The notes beneath the pieces are model-generated. The model made no database searches. It was not told the DNA's origin and saw nothing but the letters and a program-made list of their open reading frames with translations. A stretch of 32,112 nt of DNA, taken from Clostridiales bacterium. Its GTDB lineage: Bacteria; Bacillota; Clostridia; Lachnospirales; JAITVM01. The stretch's first letter is position 1; every line of letters starts with the position of its first letter. This document shows positions 5,391 to 31,886 of the stretch, piece after piece. Position numbers and translations under genes: made by a program. The DNA is taken from the NCBI GenBank assembly GCA_031285815.1, contig JAITVM010000075.1:1-32112 (forward strand), given 5' to 3'.

Positions 5391-6103
5391 ATGTCGAAAC
5401 TAGAGGAGTTTCAATTTAATTATATCAAAAAGTTACGTTTTGCTATTCCATCTTCAATTATAATCCATTATATTGTCTGTTTTGCTTTAGGGAATATTAT
5501 TGGAGAAAGCTATTTGCCAATAACGCATGCTTCTGATTTGTATAAATGGGTTTATCCATATCTAGGTGGTTCAAGTGTGGCAATAGGTTTTGTGATTTTT
5601 TTTATTGTTCGATTTTAATAATAAAAAATACAAATTTTATGACTATCCCAGACCTAAAATACGTAATCACCACCATAATGTTTTTTACTTTTGGTTTTTA
5701 CATATTTAAATCTTTTGTTAATTTTACGATTGAAGAAGATTTGGTAAAATGTATTTATATAGCAAAAGATTATATGGATATTAATGATCCAAATAATCTC
5801 TTCGTGCCGGAAAAACAATATAACAAAGCTATGAAAATAATAAATATGTCTTTTTTCATTTATTCTATTTATTACAATTTTATTTTCATGATATTCCCTT
5901 TTATAAAAAATGAAAGTTTTATTACGGATGGCGAACAGAACAGTGTAAATAAATATAAAGAGTTTGATGATATATATTTTCCTGATGAAAAAGCAGATAT
6001 TGAAGAAGATTTTGAGGAAGAAGAAAATGCAATTCCTTTCGATGAAATGTATCCTCAAGAATTCCATAACGATAATTTGAACGATGTAGTTAATAGGATT
6101 TAG
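5391..6103 (+). pseudogene. Frameshifted paralogue of the 6125-6850 membrane-protein gene (split into ORFs 5391-5618 and 5546-6103)
   Basis: Frame 1 ends ...VAIGFVIFFIVRF*. Frame 2 continues FFYCSILIIKNTNFMTIPDLKYVI, aligning with FVIFCYCFILRSKNENFKAFLDIKYIV of the neighbour. The switch maps to the T8 run at 5596-5603; T9 would restore one 237-aa ORF. Confidence 0.75.
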
Positions 6104-6124
6104 TTAAGATAGTGGGGTGCCTAA

Positions 6125-6850
6125 ATGGTTCCAAGGTCTAAAGCTTTTGAAATTAGTTATATGAAGAAGGTTGCTTTAGCAAGTTCGATTTCAGTTGCCA
6201 TTAATAATGTTTTTCGTATTATTTTAAATGACATTATAGGAAGGCAGTATCTATTATCGCATGACAGAATGATGTTGAGAAGAAATGGTTATGCAGAGTT
6301 AACTATAGGAAATATTTTAATATTCTTTGTTATTTTTTGTTACTGTTTTATTTTAAGGAGTAAGAACGAAAATTTTAAAGCCTTCCTTGATATAAAATAT
6401 ATTGTTACATCTATAATATTTTTTGTTTTTGCTTTTTATATATTTAACGCTATGTTAAATTATTCATTTACCAAATATATAATGAGATATATTATTTCTG
6501 CTAAAGGGCATTTGATTATAGATAACTCAAATATTAATTTTGTGCCAGAACTTCAATTCAATAAAGCTATTAACTTAATGAAATTTTTTTATTTTTTTTA
6601 TTTTGCTTACTACAATTTATTTTTTATGATATTTCCTTCATTTACTAAAGAAAGTTTTATTATGGATGATGAGTTGGATAATTTGGACAAACCCGAAGAA
6701 TACAATAGTACATATTATGATTATGAAAATTTAGATGAAGAAAATAACTCATATGAAAAAGAGAATTTATATGAAGAGGAAGAAAAGGCGCCACGTTTTG
6801 ATGAAATGCATCCACCAACATTTAAGCCTGATAAAAAAGATGGTTTTTAA
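6125..6850 (+). CDS. Hypothetical multi-pass membrane protein with acidic C-terminal tail (241 aa)
   Basis: About 4 hydrophobic segments and a D/E/Y/N-rich tail. Shares the upstream string ttaagatagtggggt and the C-terminal motif P-x-FDEM-x-P with the upstream paralogue. Confidence 0.7.
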   Translation: MVPRSKAFEISYMKKVALASSISVAINNVFRIILNDIIGRQYLLSHDRMMLRRNGYAELTIGNILIFFVIFCYCFILRSKNENFKAFLDIKYIVTSIIFFVFAFYIFNAMLNYSFTKYIMRYIISAKGHLIIDNSNINFVPELQFNKAINLMKFFYFFYFAYYNLFFMIFPSFTKESFIMDDELDNLDKPEEYNSTYYDYENLDEENNSYEKENLYEEEEKAPRFDEMHPPTFKPDKKDGF

Positions 6851-10037: not shown

Positions 10038-10065
10038 AAAAAAAGCTGGAATTAGCACGCCAGCT
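10038..10065 (-). terminator. Rho-independent terminator of the DeoR gene
   Basis: On the minus strand: agctgg-cgtgctaatt-ccagct followed by T7, immediately after the stop. A second perfect 12-bp hairpin (10009-10039) follows. Confidence 0.8.
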
Positions 10066-10066
10066 T

Positions 10067-10831
10067 TTACTTTGGGAAAAGGCATTTAATATTATTTTTT
10101 TCAAAATAATCAAGCCAAGCTTCCCCAGGGTGTTTATCGGTAACGATAATATCTATTGCTTTAATATTTTCGATAACCGAAAACGCCTTAATATTAAATT
10201 TTGAAGAATCTACGGCAAGTACCGCGCATTGTGAGGATTGTATCATAGCCTCTTTGCAGAGGGCAAATTCTTCCCTTGCGTCTGTCGGGCCTATTTCCAT
10301 ATCCAGCCCCTTGCATGAAATAATAGCTTTTTCAGCATAGAACCTATTAATATCAGTTACCGCCTTTTGCCCGGTCAGCGCTAAATATCCTTCATTCAGG
10401 TTTCCGCCTGTTGAAACAATATCCCAGCCTGATACATCTGACAATTCTATAAGTACCTCTATAGAATTTGTTATAACGGTTAAGCATTGCTTTTTCTTTA
10501 TTGCTTTAGCGATAAAAACAGAAGTCGTGCTTGCATCTAAAAAAATATGTTCGCCGTTTTCAATAAGCCCGCATATTATTTCAGCGATTTTTTGCTTCCC
10601 GGATACGTTCCTTTTCTTCCTAACATTAAAAGGCAGTTCAATATTGGCGGCTTCATTTAATATTGCGCCGCCATAACTTTTTATAACTAAACCGCTGTTA
10701 TGGAGTTTTTCTAAATCCCGGCGGATTGTTTCTTCTGTAACATTATAAATAAGGCTTAATTCGCCTACAGTTACTTTTTTTTGTTCCTGCAGCTTCATTA
10801 AAATTGAATTTCTTCTTTCCAGAGCCAGCAT
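10067..10831 (-). CDS. DeoR-family transcriptional regulator (HTH plus DeoR C-terminal sugar-phosphate sensor domain)
   Basis: N-terminus RRNSILMKLQEQKKVTVGELSLIYNVTEETIRRDLEKL. C-terminal domain with LDASTT and TNS motifs. Confidence 0.9.
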   Translation of the reverse strand: MLALERRNSILMKLQEQKKVTVGELSLIYNVTEETIRRDLEKLHNSGLVIKSYGGAILNEAANIELPFNVRKKRNVSGKQKIAEIICGLIENGEHIFLDASTTSVFIAKAIKKKQCLTVITNSIEVLIELSDVSGWDIVSTGGNLNEGYLALTGQKAVTDINRFYAEKAIISCKGLDMEIGPTDAREEFALCKEAMIQSSQCAVLAVDSSKFNIKAFSVIENIKAIDIIVTDKHPGEAWLDYFEKNNIKCLFPK

Positions 10832-19446: not shown

Positions 19447-20244
19447 TTAACCACCTATCTGGCACAAAAGGCCAAATTCTTCTTCAACCAGCGTTTTAAG
19501 GCCTAACATATATTCGTTTGTTGGGGGTATGGCCCCCTCCATTTCATAGGCCCGCCCCAGCCCCTTATACTTATCCTGGCCAAGCCTATGGTAAGGCAGT
19601 AAATATATTTTTTTCACATTAGGGAGTAGGGCCGCAAATTTTGCTATCTCCATAATTTCTTCTTTGGTACTGTTAAAACCGGGTATAACCGGTACCCTGA
19701 TAAAAAGGCCAAACTTATTGTTTTTTGATGACTCTGCTATTTTTCTTGCGTTCTCAAGTATCAGCTGGTTACCCATTCCGGTAAATTCTTTGTGTTTGCC
19801 CCCATCTATATGTTTAATATCCAATAAGTATTGGTCCAAATATGGAAGTATTTCTTCAATCGTTTCGAATGGGGCCCCACCCATACTCTCTATAGCCGTG
19901 GTTAAGCCCAAAGATTTTGCACCTTTAAGCAGCGCCAAAGAAAATTCGGGCTGGCAGAGGCTTTCGCCCCCGGATAATGTTAGCCCGCCGCCAGAGCGCC
20001 TGTAATAAGCCCGGTCCTTAGCAACAACTTCTATGGCCTCCCTGGCGGTTATATCCCTTCCGATAATTTCGCGGCTTCCATTAACGGACATAGTTTCAAT
20101 ATCAAAATTTTGCGACTCCGGGTTACAACACCATTTACAGCGGAGCATACAGCCTTTTAAAAATACAATTGTCCGGATGCCGGCCCCGTCATGTATTGAA
20201 AACCGCTGTATGTCAAATATCCGCCCCTTTGTTTCAAGATACAT
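19447..20244 (-). CDS. Glycyl-radical enzyme activating enzyme (radical SAM), short PflA-like form
   Basis: CMLRCKWC gives the CX3CX2C motif; GGE motif in TLSGGESL. It is 265 aa, with no additional Cys cluster between the SAM cluster and the GGE motif. Confidence 0.92.
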   Translation of the reverse strand: MYLETKGRIFDIQRFSIHDGAGIRTIVFLKGCMLRCKWCCNPESQNFDIETMSVNGSREIIGRDITAREAIEVVAKDRAYYRRSGGGLTLSGGESLCQPEFSLALLKGAKSLGLTTAIESMGGAPFETIEEILPYLDQYLLDIKHIDGGKHKEFTGMGNQLILENARKIAESSKNNKFGLFIRVPVIPGFNSTKEEIMEIAKFAALLPNVKKIYLLPYHRLGQDKYKGLGRAYEMEGAIPPTNEYMLGLKTLVEEEFGLLCQIGG

Positions 20245-20300: not shown

Positions 20301-22820
20301 TTATATACCTTGTTCTGTCCGGCTAATAATGTCATCCTGCAAGGGCCTGGATAAGGTTGTAAACAATGCACTGTAGCCGGCAACACGTACAATCAGATGT
20401 TTATAATTTTCCGGATGTTGCTGGGCGTCCAGCAATGTGGCCCTATCAACTACATTAAATTGCAGATGGCTGCCCTTTTGGTCAAAATATGACCGGATAA
20501 AAGCCACAAAATTATTTAGGCCTTCCTCGCCGGTTAAAGCGCTTGGATGAAATTTCATGTTAAACAAGGTACCGTTTGAAGCTATCCCGTGGTCCAGGCG
20601 GGCTACGGAATTAGCAGAGGCTGTTGGGCCGTTAACATCTTTTCCTGCAGAGGGTGAAACCCCATCTGCAATTGGTGTGCCGGCCAAGCGGCCGTCTGGC
20701 GTCGCGCCTGTTTGGGCCCCTAATGGCACATTAGCCGAAACTGGGTACAAGCCGGCTTGAAAAATACCGCCCCTAGGGTTTTTATAATGCTCCAAAGGTT
20801 TTGTGTAGGTGTAGGCGGCATCCCTTGCTAAAAAATCTACATCTGCTATATCATTCCCATACTTAGGGAGTTCATCAATCCATGTCAATAATGTTTCATA
20901 TTTTTCATTTATTTCTTTTAACCCGCCTGAATTAATAATACTGGCTACGAGCCCTGAAATATTTTTTTCAGAAAACTCTTGCCCTGAATTTTTAACCGTA
21001 TGGGCAACTTCAGCAATTATGGCAGGTATTGCCTGGCCGTATAAATCTTTGCCGTAATTAAGCCCTAAAGCCTGTTTAAATTCTGCCAGGGTGATTTTTT
21101 TATCCTCATATACCAATTTTTTTATTGCATACAAGGAATCCGCCACATTGGCTACCCCAAAGCCCTGAGGCCCTGAAAAGTTATAAAGGGCGCCGCCTTC
21201 TTGTACACTTTTGCCCCTTTTAATGCAATCATTAACCATAGAAGACAAGAATGGCAGCGGGCACCTATCGCAATGTGCGGTATCTATAGAGTTAATGGCA
21301 TTTACTAATAACGAAATATTATAAGACATCTGGCTCTTATAAGCATTATAAAATTTTTCGAATGTATCAAATGATTCTACCCCACCGGTTTCAATGCTTA
21401 TTAGCTCGCCCTTATCGGAGCCGTTAGAAAAAACTAACTCTAAAGGCCGGCACATATTAAAGAACGCAGCGTCATGCCACCCGTCAGTTTTTCCGGCTTT
21501 TTGCGGCTCAACACAGCCGATGATATTATAGGTACGGGCATCCTTAAGTGTTAAGCCCCTATTCATAAGGGACGGGATAATAACCTCGTCATTATAATAA
21601 GCTGGCAAACCAATGCCTGTCCTTGTTAGCTCAGCCGCTTTTACTAGCAGCTCATGGGGGGAGCCATTCCAAACGCGGACTGATAATGACGGCTGAGGCA
21701 AAAATACATGTATAGAGGCTTCAATACACATAAATGATAAATCATTTGTAACGTCAAGCCCATCTTCGTCTTGCCCGCCGACAATTAAATTTTGAAACAA
21801 GCTATAGCCCGCAAAACCCTCAGCACTGGCCGCATCGCGGCATTTATTAAGGTCGTTTAATTTTATCCAGATACAATCAATTAATTCTTGTGCAAACTCT
21901 TTCGTAATAGCCCCTTTATCTATGTCTGATTTGTAATAAGGGTACATATATTGGTCAAAGCGGCCTGGTGAAATTGAATGGCCGCTGGATTCTAGCTGTA
22001 TAAGTTGATGGGTAAACCAAAAACATTGGCATGCCCCGTAAAAATTTGTTACACCATTAGCCAGTGAATTTTTACAAACCTCAGAAATTTTTATTAGCTC
22101 TGCTTCCCTAGGCGTGCCTTTGTAGCTACCTGCCATTTCCGCGGCTAATTCAGAATAGCGCAAAGCATAGTTAATAGCCGATTCGCAGGATATAATAACG
22201 CTTTTTAAAAAAGAATGCCTTTTGGCATAATCCATATCACCAACATTAAGTACTGCGATTTCTTTTTGGGCTTCTTCAATTATGCCGTTAAAACCTATTT
22301 CCAATATTTTTTCGTATTCTACAGTTATATGGCCAATGCCGTTATAATAATAATTTCCTGGTGTAAAAATATTATGCGCCATTGCCTTCTTTGCTTCTGG
22401 CGACATATATGCTTCTGCCAGTTCGCTGGTTGTTTTGCCCTTCCAATAGGTGTTTGCTGATTTTAAATCCAGCTTTGTTTGGCCAGAAATATAAAAAGGG
22501 TCGGCTTTCCTGTGCTCTACGGTATCAAACTCTTCCTCGAGCCATTCAAATGAATACTCGGGGTAGGTTTGGCACCCCCTAGGCGCAATGGTTGAGCTTC
22601 CGACTATCAATTCACCATCACGGATAATAATAGGTATATTAGATAAAATATGAGAGAAGGCTTCTGCCCTCCTAATTATTAAAGGCTGCCCTTCTGTCTT
22701 TTTATAAGATTCAGTGATAAGCAGCGCCCTTGCCGGTTCTATTTCCGGCATATTTTTATACAAATCTTCGGTTAGCCTAGTAACCCTTTCCGGCTTCTCA
22801 ATAGAATATTTTTTTTCCAT
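20301..22820 (-). CDS. Glycyl radical enzyme of the diol-dehydratase type (predicted B12-independent 1,2-propanediol dehydratase)
   Basis: 839 aa. Glycyl radical motif RVAGYS (Gly815), thiyl loop GCVEP (Cys436, Glu438), His164 in GIGH, and Asp450. Confidence 0.9.
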   Translation of the reverse strand: MEKKYSIEKPERVTRLTEDLYKNMPEIEPARALLITESYKKTEGQPLIIRRAEAFSHILSNIPIIIRDGELIVGSSTIAPRGCQTYPEYSFEWLEEEFDTVEHRKADPFYISGQTKLDLKSANTYWKGKTTSELAEAYMSPEAKKAMAHNIFTPGNYYYNGIGHITVEYEKILEIGFNGIIEEAQKEIAVLNVGDMDYAKRHSFLKSVIISCESAINYALRYSELAAEMAGSYKGTPREAELIKISEVCKNSLANGVTNFYGACQCFWFTHQLIQLESSGHSISPGRFDQYMYPYYKSDIDKGAITKEFAQELIDCIWIKLNDLNKCRDAASAEGFAGYSLFQNLIVGGQDEDGLDVTNDLSFMCIEASIHVFLPQPSLSVRVWNGSPHELLVKAAELTRTGIGLPAYYNDEVIIPSLMNRGLTLKDARTYNIIGCVEPQKAGKTDGWHDAAFFNMCRPLELVFSNGSDKGELISIETGGVESFDTFEKFYNAYKSQMSYNISLLVNAINSIDTAHCDRCPLPFLSSMVNDCIKRGKSVQEGGALYNFSGPQGFGVANVADSLYAIKKLVYEDKKITLAEFKQALGLNYGKDLYGQAIPAIIAEVAHTVKNSGQEFSEKNISGLVASIINSGGLKEINEKYETLLTWIDELPKYGNDIADVDFLARDAAYTYTKPLEHYKNPRGGIFQAGLYPVSANVPLGAQTGATPDGRLAGTPIADGVSPSAGKDVNGPTASANSVARLDHGIASNGTLFNMKFHPSALTGEEGLNNFVAFIRSYFDQKGSHLQFNVVDRATLLDAQQHPENYKHLIVRVAGYSALFTTLSRPLQDDIISRTEQGI

Positions 22821-22871: not shown

Positions 22872-22889
22872 AAAAACAACACAATACAA
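22872..22889. promoter_or_regulatory. Downstream arm of an 18-bp perfect inverted repeat (candidate operator, in the 5' UTR of the BMC operon)
   Basis: aaaaacaacacaatacaa is the exact reverse complement of 22954-22971. Confidence 0.6.
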
Positions 22890-22913
22890 CAACAATGATA
22901 TTATTCAATATCA

Positions 22914-22942
22914 ATTATATACTTGTTTTTGTTTGTTGTCAA
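22914..22942 (-). promoter_or_regulatory. Consensus sigma-A promoter of the BMC operon
   Basis: On the minus strand: TTGACA (22942-22937), exactly 17 nt, TATAAT (22919-22914). It lies about 95 nt upstream of the GRE ATG. Confidence 0.8.
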
Positions 22943-22953
22943 TTGGAACAACT

Positions 22954-22971
22954 TTGTATTGTGTTGTTTTT
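22954..22971. promoter_or_regulatory. Upstream arm of the 18-bp perfect inverted repeat (candidate operator, 11 nt upstream of the -35)
   Basis: ttgtattgtgttgttttt is the exact reverse complement of 22872-22889. Confidence 0.6.
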
Positions 22972-23123
22972 GTTGGTTTTGGTATGGAGATTTTTGGATG
23001 GGCTTGAGGTTTTATTTAAATAAAAAAAGTGCAACCTTTGGGTTATGAATGCGTATACTTATTGAACAAGGCGTATCAGAAAATTAACCGCATAACTAAT
23101 ATAATTTTGAAAGGGTTGAAACC

Positions 23124-23594
23124 TTGAAAACATTAATAATTTACGCATCAAAATATGGTGCGACAGCGGAAATAGCAAAACGTATTGGGGATAAAATAAA
23201 TGGGTCTTCCCTATATGACATTAAGGGGGGCAATTGCCCGCCTTTAGATGGGTTTGATAACATAATCATTGGCAGCCCGCTTTATGTTGGCAATGTACGT
23301 AAGGAGATAAAAGAATTTATAGCTAAAAACGAAAGTATCTTAAAAGGGAAAAAATTTGCTTTATTTTTAAGCGGATGTGAACCCAATAAGGGGGCGGAGT
23401 ATTTTAAAAATAATTTCCCTGAAGGGGTTTTACAGGCAGCTAAAGCTGCGGTTTTTGTTGGCGGGTTATATGACCCTAAAAAATCAGGGTTTTTAGATAA
23501 GCTTCTGCTTAAAATAGCAGCTAAGAAATCGGATTATTTTGAAAATATTGATGGCTCAAAGATTGACAAATTAGTTGAAGCAATGGGTTCGTGA
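23124..23594 (+). CDS. Flavodoxin-domain protein (156 aa)
   Basis: N-terminus MKTLIIYASKYGATAEIAKRIG, followed by IIGSPLYVG. TTG start with AAAGGG 8 nt upstream. Divergent from the BMC operon. Confidence 0.8.
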   Translation: MKTLIIYASKYGATAEIAKRIGDKINGSSLYDIKGGNCPPLDGFDNIIIGSPLYVGNVRKEIKEFIAKNESILKGKKFALFLSGCEPNKGAEYFKNNFPEGVLQAAKAAVFVGGLYDPKKSGFLDKLLLKIAAKKSDYFENIDGSKIDKLVEAMGS

Positions 23595-23627: not shown

Positions 23628-24443
23628 GTGTTTAAAATTGGCGAGTTTTCTAAATTAACACAAGTTTCGGTAAGGATGTTAAGGTATTATGATGAAATTG
23701 GGCTGGTTAAACCAGCAGCGGTAGATAATTTTACAAATTATAGGCTGTATTCAGCCAGCCAAATTACTGTATTAGGCAAGATTAAATTCTTGCGGGATTT
23801 AGGTTTTAATACAAGTGAAATTTCGGCAGCGTTAACTGAATGGGGAAGCTCAAATATTACGGGCATACTTAATAAAAAGCAAACTGAAATCCAACAAGCT
23901 ATAAAAGTGGAACAGGATAAGCTTGCTAAAATAGAATTGGCAAAGAAGGATATATTGAACGGCCAAATAAATATAAACTATAATGTCTCTATAAAACCAA
24001 CCCCCAGTTATAATGTGATTTCGTTAAGGAAAGTTATGCCGGATTATTTTACTGAAGGCTTGTTATGGGAAGAGCTGTCTAGCTTTGTCCATATCAATAA
24101 AATAGATGTAACGAATAATAATTTTGCCATATATCATGATTTGGATTATAGGGAAAAAGATGTAGATATTGAAATATGCGCTGAAGTATTACAAATGGGT
24201 GAAGGTAAAGGGGGGTTTGCTTACCGGGCAACCGAACCACAATTAAACATGGCATATACTATGGTATATGGCCCATTTGAAAATATTTCTGGGGCATTTT
24301 ATTCGTTTGCTAATTGGCTAAGTGGGCATAGCCAATATAAAATGTCAGGGCCGAATAGGCAAATTGTACACCGTGGCCCATGGAATGAAAATAACCCTTT
24401 CAATTATTTAACTGAAATACAAATCCCCCTGGAGAAAATATAA
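23628..24443 (+). CDS. MerR-family regulator with GyrI-like (BmrR-type) effector-binding domain
   Basis: N-terminal HTH FKIGEFSKLTQVSVRMLRYYDEIGL, a coiled-coil linker, and a C-terminal domain of about 150 aa. GTG start with SD AGAGGTGG. Confidence 0.85.
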   Translation: MFKIGEFSKLTQVSVRMLRYYDEIGLVKPAAVDNFTNYRLYSASQITVLGKIKFLRDLGFNTSEISAALTEWGSSNITGILNKKQTEIQQAIKVEQDKLAKIELAKKDILNGQININYNVSIKPTPSYNVISLRKVMPDYFTEGLLWEELSSFVHINKIDVTNNNFAIYHDLDYREKDVDIEICAEVLQMGEGKGGFAYRATEPQLNMAYTMVYGPFENISGAFYSFANWLSGHSQYKMSGPNRQIVHRGPWNENNPFNYLTEIQIPLEKI

Positions 24444-31246: not shown

Positions 31247-31729
31247 TTACGGGTTTTGAAAATTTTTATTTCTTCTAAATAATTTTGAAAAAAACGGCAC
31301 TTTTTCAACAGAAGGCATAATCTCATTAGAAACAGTGGCCACATTTTCTTCTTTATTCTTATCGATTAACAGCATGGTCTGATGCTGCTTCTCTAACCCA
31401 AATACATTTATAAGGCTTTGAATAGTTTTTTCCTTCTCTTCTAATTGTTTGTCCTTTATTTCAAGCTGTTGCTTTAGAAGGATTAGCAATTCTACATCCG
31501 GGCCCTTATACTCCTCCTCATCTATAGCCTTTTTAACCTCGTCTTCAATATTTTTAAATGACTCTTCACTTTCTAAATTATAATAGTCAATAATAAAAAT
31601 TTTGCTCTCATCAGTTAAAAAAGTAGTGCCCTCTTTTTTTATAGTTGTTAAGTTGTTTTTTTTGACTAGGTTGTAAATAGATGTTTTACTCTTTCCCAAT
31701 TCATCGGATAGGTCTTTAATAGTGATCAT
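31247..31729 (-). CDS. Small HTH DNA-binding protein with coiled-coil C-terminal half (mobile-element-like)
   Basis: The HTH reads MITIKDLSDELGKSKTSIYNLVKKNNL. A charged coiled coil (LLILLKQQLEIKDKQLEEKEKTIQSL) follows. Start set at the ATG at 31729 (AAGGA 9 nt upstream) rather than the ORF-track TTG at 31738. Confidence 0.7.
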   Translation of the reverse strand: MITIKDLSDELGKSKTSIYNLVKKNNLTTIKKEGTTFLTDESKIFIIDYYNLESEESFKNIEDEVKKAIDEEEYKGPDVELLILLKQQLEIKDKQLEEKEKTIQSLINVFGLEKQHQTMLLIDKNKEENVATVSNEIMPSVEKVPFFSKLFRRNKNFQNP

Positions 31730-31886
31730 TTTTTTCAATCCTTTTAAATATTTTTAAATACCATTAATTTATTTTAATCTATTTACCACCATATTTTCAA
31801 TTGTTTTTATTATATTTTAACAATATTTATGCAATGCTTAAATTAGGTTTATTTTGCTTTTATAAATTGTACCCACAGTTTTGAAA

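Follow-up and report, generated by a model that had tools for sequence, protein, structure and literature searches.

A consensus promoter enclosed by an exact inverted repeat, within a helically phased A+C-rich tract, heads a GRM5-type microcompartment operon

Glycyl-radical microcompartments of the GRM5 type are used by gut and soil Clostridia to convert fucose and rhamnose to propionate and propanol. The locus type was defined by Axen et al. 2014 (PMC4207490), and a GRM5 locus was studied in Clostridium phytofermentans by Petit et al. 2013 (PMC3557285). Neither paper describes a promoter or an operator, though the DeoR gene of the locus is noted, and in the literature that we searched we found no description of how these operons of roughly 13 kb are switched on, nor of a cis-regulatory signature of their promoters. 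Here, we analyze such a promoter in a 32,112-nucleotide stretch of DNA from a Clostridiales bacterium (contig JAITVM010000075.1 of assembly GCA_031285815.1), hereafter the window, which is the whole contig of a 75%-complete metagenome-assembled genome. The promoter, TTGACA-N17-TATAAT on the minus strand, is enclosed by the two arms of a perfect inverted repeat and lies in an A+C-rich tract of short repeated units that is not mentioned in the texts searched. It heads a 12.75-kb, 15-gene minus-strand operon that, as judged from its genes, is a GRM5-type fucose/rhamnose glycyl-radical microcompartment operon. Its gene set is the one by which GRM5 loci are defined (glycyl radical enzyme [GRE], activase, class II aldolase, DUF336, zinc-type alcohol dehydrogenase, PduL, PduS-like, bacterial microcompartment [BMC] and DeoR), and the likeness to the loci of PMC4207490 and PMC3557285 extends to the aldehyde dehydrogenase and the BMC shell genes.

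The closest described regulatory systems are of 2 kinds, DeoR-type regulators with similar sites and repression loops with a similar layout. SugR of Corynebacterium glutamicum is a DeoR-type repressor that recognizes a 21-bp A+C-rich, non-palindromic motif (ACAAAC ... AACA), has sites within and downstream of the promoter, and is released by fructose-1-phosphate (PMC2222622). The locus analyzed here resembles that system in the A+C-rich, non-palindromic character of its proposed sites (approximately 21 bp for SugR, with ACAAAC/AACA-like cores), in the presence of 2 such sites at one promoter, and in a candidate regulator with HTH_DeoR and DeoRC domains that would likewise be released by a sugar-1-phosphate. 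It differs in the organism, in the exact sequence and in the regulon, which for SugR is that of the phosphotransferase system; moreover, the SugR sites do not form an exact inverted pair around the promoter. The motifs predicted for the DeoR-type RhaR regulators consist of directly repeated units that match imperfectly and recur every 10 to 11 bp (Rodionova et al. 2013, PMC3870299). RhaR is likewise a local DeoR-type regulator of deoxy-hexose catabolism, and its periodicity is that of the arms and of the tracts of relatives described below. However, it belongs to Bacillales, Thermotogales, Rhizobiales and Chloroflexales and acts on rha genes through lineage-specific motifs, and no GRM5 operator is given in PMC3870299. 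The arm of our element fits the site types of the family, which are either non-palindromic A+C-rich sites of approximately 20 bp or tandem repeats with a period of 10 to 11 bp. Repression loops that enclose a promoter are formed in Escherichia coli by the gal repressosome (OE/OI), between lac O1 and O3 (92 bp) and by DeoR (O1/O2/OE). As in those loops, 2 putative operators flank the promoter, the −35 and −10 boxes are left uncovered and the spacing is close to an integral number of helical turns; in the E. coli systems an oligomeric repressor bridges the operators. Their operators are each palindromic, whereas our arms, as putative operators, are asymmetric and form an inverted pair. At 82 bp, the proposed loop would lie at the short end of known loops.

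The elements of the promoter region are the following (relative positions refer to the predicted transcription start):

22972 to 22982, minus strand: additional unit CCAAAACCAAC, degenerate, which lies 10 bp farther upstream than the arm's first unit; with it, the proposed operator U would comprise 3 phased units
22954 to 22971, minus strand: upstream arm (proposed operator U), −47 to −64, gene-sense AAAAACAACACAATACAA, made of 2 tandem units of approximately 10 bp (AAAACAACAC and AATACAA)
22937 to 22942, minus strand: −35 hexamer TTGACA
22920 to 22936, minus strand: spacer ACAAACAAAAACAAGTA, 17 nucleotides, A+C-rich, with weak unit-like copies seen by inspection
22914 to 22919, minus strand: −10 hexamer TATAAT
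22872 to 22889, minus strand: downstream arm (proposed operator D), approximately +18 to +36, within the 5' untranslated region (UTR), an exact inverted copy of operator U

The 2 arms are complementary at 18 of 18 positions with 64 nucleotides between them, and the promoter that they enclose is the only 12/12 match to the consensus between positions 20000 and 25000, which confirms the initial annotation in its claim of an 18-bp perfect inverted repeat around a consensus minus-strand promoter. The geometry that it had given is also correct: the gap between the upstream arm and the −35 hexamer is 11 nucleotides, the downstream arm lies at approximately +18 to +36, and the arm centers are 82 bp apart. 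The transcription start was predicted near 22906/22907 from the usual spacing, approximately 7 nucleotides past the −10 hexamer. The downstream arm ends 51 nucleotides ahead of the ATG of the first gene (at 22820). A further claim, that the distance equals approximately 8 helical turns and places both arms on the same face of the helix, holds for the 82 bp but not strictly for the phase, which at 10.5 bp per turn amounts to 7.8 turns and is inexact.

The arm consists of A and C at 17 of its 18 positions and is not self-complementary, being built of the units AAAACAACAC and AATACAA(CAA). Read in gene sense, the upstream region is CC-AAAACCAACA-AAAACAACAC-AATACAAAGT, 3 units of approximately 10 bp of which the arm takes the best 2 (Tandem Repeats Finder detected a weak period-9 repeat at 22962–22981). 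Downstream, the other strand reads A-AAAACAACAC-AATACAACAA; positions 22872–22889 of the plus strand are AAAAACAACACAATACAA, and the unit pattern runs on to approximately 22892 (AATACAACAA, plus strand). Altogether, the unit tract extends from about −75 to about +46, and the arms belong to it. Exactly between the −10 hexamer and the downstream arm, an 18-bp AT-rich palindrome (TGATATT-ATTC-AATATCA, 22896–22913) overlies the predicted start and may be either one more site for a protein or a product of chance.

Both the repeat and the promoter exceed what chance produces. The 2.3-Mb genome contains 6 perfect inverted repeats of at least 18 nucleotides with loops of 20 to 400 nucleotides, and the loops of the other 5 measure 20 to 24 nucleotides; the arm pair is the only perfect inverted repeat of at least 17 nucleotides with a loop longer than 39 nucleotides, and none of at least 17 nucleotides occurred in 3 block-shuffled genomes. 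TTGACA-N17-TATAAT occurs 20 times in the genome against approximately 1.3 occurrences expected from composition, indicating that full-consensus promoters are a genuine but small class in this organism and that ours is not unique. The 126-bp element is single-copy in the assembly, and no other match to the arm with 2 or fewer mismatches was found in the 2.3 Mb available. A miniature inverted-repeat transposable element, or another small mobile element with terminal inverted repeats, was ruled out because the element is single-copy and the arm has no second match. A structured RNA (a 5' UTR element or small RNA) was also rejected, because the arms are predicted not to be co-transcribed; only the downstream arm lies past the predicted start, and for that start the initial annotation was right to state that the arms cannot pair in a 5' UTR hairpin. 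Searches against Rfam returned only sub-threshold chance matches (mir-392, E = 0.13), so that a known RNA family or leader hairpin was dismissed, and the z-score of −2.8 obtained for the RNA fold merely reflects the repeat. The palindrome at 22896–22913 appears in that fold as a small inner hairpin.

Next to its inverted repeat, the promoter stands out by composition. The 40-bp windows with the strongest A+C/G+T strand skew of the entire 32 kb start at 22953–22963 (skew 0.90), and the A+C content upstream of the promoter is 0.82 against at most 0.58 at the other 19 full-consensus promoters of the genome, which makes it an outlier among the 20. Those 19 promoters lack the tract, which therefore does not belong to the strong promoters of this genome in general. 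For the strict motif AAAAC[AC]ACA[CT]AA, the genome has 7 further copies, all isolated and, for most of those that were read, located inside open reading frames (ORFs), which argues against a global regulon. A position weight matrix built by hand was too A-rich to be specific, and with it the promoter ranked second among site clusters genome-wide. One lead that arose in this search, an inverted repeat resembling TTTGTATATTGTG ahead of a kinase operon on contig C183, was dropped because the kinase is a xylulokinase with a LacI-type neighbor. The operon in question (C183:1513–5400; xylulokinase, DUF, fucose-isomerase-like) stands behind another TTGACA-N17-TATAAT promoter, with the LacI-type regulator downstream, and a 9-bp inverted repeat (ATTTGTATA/TATACAAAT) lies approximately 150 bp upstream of that promoter.

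To place the element in a wider context, we compared it with approximately 25 loci from gut and soil Clostridia (L033–L057, L069, L071–L073, L087–L092). These relatives are distant, with a GRE identity to ours of at most 73%. No nucleotide-level orthologue was found in 40 related genomes, the GRE is absent from the representative genome of the same genus, exact-protein look-ups of the GRE and the flavodoxin gave no match, and a metagenome scan yielded 2 loci only. Loci that begin with the GRE gene likewise have a promoter at or close to the consensus: TTGACA-17-TATAAT in L069/L091 and L071, TTGACA-18-TATAAT in L043/L047, and TTGACT-17-TATAAT or TTGACT-17-TAAAAT in L037/38, L072, L089 and L041. 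Units of the AAAAC(A/C)A(C/A) type make up an A+C-rich tract around each of these promoters, and by inspection a clear unit is often present in the promoter spacer. In 11 of 16 GRE-first loci, the 40-bp window of maximal skew within the whole 5- to 9-kb locus sits 120 to 190 bp upstream of the GRE start. In the 5 loci with a hydrolase gene ahead of the GRE gene, that window lies upstream of the hydrolase gene, i.e., at the operon start. By contrast, no such tract was found at the equivalent position upstream of the GRE gene in 6 loci of the same order with other GRE types. A phased A+C-rich unit tract is thus firmly established as a feature that is kept at, and specific to, GRM5 promoters. The initial annotation had suggested a comparison of orthologous promoter regions; it bore out the type of tract, while the exact 18-mer proved borderline (P values between 0.04 and 0.16, given below). 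That annotation had also reasoned that so strong a promoter must be under repression, and the retention of consensus or near-consensus promoters in the relatives fits this kind of control.

The tracts of the relatives are helically phased. The spacing between AAAC words in 21 of them peaks at 10 and 11 bp (14 and 11 observed against 2 expected), with further peaks at 19–23 and 31–33 bp. This periodicity would also be produced if the tract were a phased A-tract (curved DNA, UP-like) or an activator array that boosts the promoter, the downstream arm then being an inverted duplication of part of it that arose by accident or is neutral. Transcription is known to be stimulated by phased A-tracts ahead of clostridial and Bacillus promoters, and the units of most relatives sit, in one orientation, right upstream of the −35 box, as such a role would have it. 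However, the core promoter has the full consensus as it is, and no tract accompanies the other 19 consensus promoters of the genome. Moreover, in L041, L043, L033, L037b, L051 and L073b units occur in the spacer or downstream of the start, where an UP element cannot act, and a boosting tract leaves unexplained the 18/18 inverted copy at +18 to +36, and no inverted repeat of 17 nucleotides or more arose in shuffled genomes. We therefore consider stimulation by the tract unlikely.

Inverted copies of the units were detected in 3 other lineages. L033 carries an inverted pair of 13 perfect (approximately 22 imperfect) nucleotides with a center-to-center distance of 62 bp, the proximal arm overlapping the −35 box; L037/38 have a 14- to 15-nucleotide palindrome centered on the −35 box; and in L073 a 9-nucleotide inverted pair, 63 bp apart, ends beside the −35 box. 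The distances between inverted copies (20–21, 62–63 and 82 bp) are all near whole numbers of helical turns. In L037b, L051 and L073b, unit tracts flank the transcription start on both sides but in direct orientation. These observations bear on the possibility that our repeat is a recent local inverted duplication in low-complexity CAA/TTG-rich DNA without a function of its own. The region is indeed of low complexity, the order-specific conservation of the arm is borderline, and no relative with a GRE identity above 73% is at hand to show conservation within the lineage. Yet a neutral duplication accounts neither for the symmetric placement around a consensus promoter at approximately 8 helical turns nor for the analogous inverted pairs at 20–21, 62 and 63 bp in the 3 other lineages, and the shuffled sequences again contained no inverted repeat of at least 17 nucleotides. 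This origin thus seems quite unlikely to us.

An inverted repeat that brackets a promoter between divergent genes also recalls the invertons, as known from fimS, Bacteroides and C. difficile and catalogued with PhaseFinder and DeepInverton (PMC11602134), although the same source recognizes a class of promoters that have inverted repeats without being invertons. At our locus, a site-specific recombinase would flip 22890–22953 so that the promoter toggles between the microcompartment operon on the minus strand and the flavodoxin and MerR genes on the plus strand. The repeat does bracket a complete promoter exactly, with genes on either side, perfect identity of the arms is typical of recombination sites, and a small serine recombinase gene of the resolvase/invertase type (186 amino acids) is encoded elsewhere in the genome (C98:16165–16725). 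It lies near a contig end, on a different contig from the arms, and was the only recombinase noticed. In the window, no integrase, resolvase or recombinase was found among the Pfam-scanned ORFs of at least 100 amino acids (the ORF at 31247–31738 left out). Furthermore, the inner segment measures just 64 bp, below characterized invertons. The fimS element spans 314 bp, and the switches of C. difficile and Bacteroides approximately 150 to 200 bp. A recombinase dimer would find no internal dyad in the arms, the unit type of the arms forms direct tandem arrays at orthologous promoters, the inverted pairs of L033 and L073 do not enclose the promoter, and the genome holds no second element of this kind. 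We regard a flipping promoter as very improbable. An ultra-short inverton with its recombinase encoded elsewhere, by which the microcompartment operon would vary in phase against the divergent flavodoxin–MerR pair, is a longer shot still; if this were true, no smaller inverton would be known, and no earlier one would have been reported to control a bacterial microcompartment.

Repression by a protein that binds both arms is the explanation that we favor, and the genes around the promoter suggest which protein that may be. Those that matter here are the following:

20301 to 22820, minus strand: gene that opens the operon, for a glycyl radical enzyme in the diol-dehydratase-like PFL2 family (Pfam PFL-like, 4.4e-233, and Gly_radical; NCBIfam TIGR01774)
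10067 to 10831, minus strand: DeoR-family regulator, last gene of the operon and candidate arm-binding protein (HTH_DeoR PF08220 and DeoRC PF00455)
10038 to 10066, minus strand: intrinsic-terminator-like hairpin (AAGCTGG...CCAGCTT, then a T run) directly past the DeoR stop codon, marking the operon end
23124 to 23594, plus strand: flavodoxin gene adjoining the promoter
23628 to 24443, plus strand: MerR/GyrI-like regulator gene adjoining the promoter, approximately 650 bp away

The operon begins with the GRE, the activase, a BMC shell protein, the class II aldolase, a DUF336/HbpS-like protein, an aldehyde dehydrogenase and the zinc-type alcohol dehydrogenase, and ends with 3 BMC genes, PduL, a PduS-like protein, a tandem-BMC (PduT-like) protein and the DeoR-family regulator. 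The initial annotation had named an adjacent DeoR regulator as the candidate for arm binding. As for position this was mistaken, because the DeoR gene is the last of the operon, 12 kb downstream, and the adjacent regulator is of the MerR type. The candidate itself stands: the arms look like operators, and relatives with similar tracts also encode a DeoR protein. An orthologue (35% to 58% identity) follows directly after the PduS/PduT-like genes in 10 of 10 relatives' genomes examined. The recognition helix, V-[TS]-E-E-T-I-R-R-D-L-x-K-L, is near-invariant among these orthologues, but as it is a signature of the whole family its invariance adds little. Our protein matches the NCBIfam AgaR/SrlR/GlpR/DeoR/FucR-like models below their cut-offs. 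Within the family, E. coli FucR acts as an activator. Bacillus subtilis DeoR was dropped as a family precedent, since it belongs to the SorC family (PMC11229326).

The arms could instead be bound by another protein, namely the adjacent MerR/GyrI-type regulator, a second DeoR protein (FucR-like) encoded on contig C98, or a global regulator. The MerR-family gene is only 650 bp off, on the other strand, the second DeoR-type gene stands beside fucU-fucK-fucI, and the motif has no direct link to any particular protein. On the other side, relatives conserve the tract yet have neither the flavodoxin nor the MerR gene beside their GRE genes, so the neighboring MerR protein is not a conserved partner of the tract. 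MerR-type sites, in addition, are dyads inside spacers of 19 to 20 bp, and the spacer here is of 17 bp. The fuc operon of C98 (1614–6436; fucU-like, an FGGY sugar kinase that is putatively fucK, and fucI, on the minus strand) has its divergent DeoR-family gene at 5636–6436, and the intergenic region contains TTGAACA-N4-TTGAACA direct repeats and no A+C-rich tract. Because this region has different repeats, the tract is not a general "fucose box". This and the location of the 2 regulator genes suggest that the pathway may be run by 2 separate DeoR-type circuits (RhaA was not found in the 75%-complete genome). A global regulator is opposed by the isolated character of the only 7 further copies of the strict motif. 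Binding by any of these other proteins is, in our view, improbable, and the operon's own last-gene DeoR protein is the most probable arm-binding factor as far as gene content and site type can tell.

We propose that the 2 arms form a pair of operators through which DeoR represses the promoter, by bridging or looping; we give this reading somewhat better than even chances. Operator U would abut the upstream edge of the RNA polymerase footprint and operator D, in inverted orientation, would lie in the early transcribed region. With their centers 82 bp or approximately 8 turns apart, both arms could be held by a DeoR oligomer of the size of a dimer of dimers or above. Between the bridged arms, the consensus sigma-A promoter would then be confined to a tight loop or a wrapped complex, and a constitutively strong promoter would thereby be kept off, possibly with additional weak repressor contacts in the spacer. 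The repressor would be released by a sugar phosphate that derives from fucose or rhamnose and is formed before the aldolase of the operon acts; fuculose-1-phosphate and rhamnulose-1-phosphate are the likely effectors because they are the substrates of the class II aldolase. As the operon ends with the gene for its regulator, the proposed circuit would be negatively autoregulated. Most likely, this is an ordinary repressor–operator design of a familiar kind that involves no new principle.

Several results weigh against this proposal. No arm-like site was found upstream of the DeoR gene itself or at the C98 fucU-fucK-fucI operon, which has its own DeoR-type regulator and the TTGAACA repeats instead. 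The units of the relatives lie mostly in direct orientation upstream of the −35 box, which suits an activator or UP-like element too, the 7.8 turns between our arms leave the phase inexact, and a perfect 18/18 match of the arms exceeds what operators usually need. The specificity of the arm sequence is a further weakness. The sum of its best matches in relatives was 189, compared with 175 ± 3 in locally shuffled upstream regions, but against composition-matched permutations of the arm the P value was 0.16 for the GRE-upstream regions and, for whole loci, 0.05 (number of loci with at least 15/18 matches), 0.04 (the best match of 17/18) and 0.10 (sum). De novo motif searches by expectation-maximization (EM), in both multi-site and one-site-per-sequence modes, yielded nothing beyond A/C composition or the −35 box, with likelihoods that showed no gain over shuffled controls. 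Order-specific conservation of the 18-mer is thus borderline, and the permutation and EM results limit the firm claim to a phased A+C-rich unit tract and not a sharp motif.

If the units are indeed the DeoR operator, GRM5 operons would gain a testable model in which a consensus promoter is held by a bridging repressor and freed by a deoxy-sugar phosphate. The tract would also provide a sequence signature by which to mark GRM5 promoters in metagenomes, and the promoter region a compact, tightly repressed, sugar-inducible cassette for anaerobes.

The same kind of tract recurs inside some of the relatives' loci. In L037, L071, L072 and L073, a second promoter ahead of the aldolase gene carries the A+C-rich units, and the closest matches to our arm (17/18 in L072, 16/18 in L073 and 15/18 in L037) all lie in the intergenic region between the activase and aldolase genes. 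These second, near-consensus promoter regions are located at L071:6810–6960, L072:6790–6930, L073:6650–6830 and L037:6700–6860. The window has no activase–aldolase gap, as a BMC gene is inserted between the 2 genes, 21 bp from the aldolase gene. The metagenomic GRE genes of L071–L073 encode proteins of 943 to 1001 amino acids, 100 to 160 residues longer than the 839 amino acids of ours, and tblastn alignments showed overlapping or duplicated mid-protein segments. This pattern suggests that the extra length was inserted or duplicated internally and was not added at the N-terminus. Finally, the MerR and GyrI-like protein encoded at 23628–24443 weakly matches the NCBIfam model "choline utilization transcriptional activator" (55 bits against a cut-off of 450), the type of regulator that is found beside choline-type GRE microcompartments.

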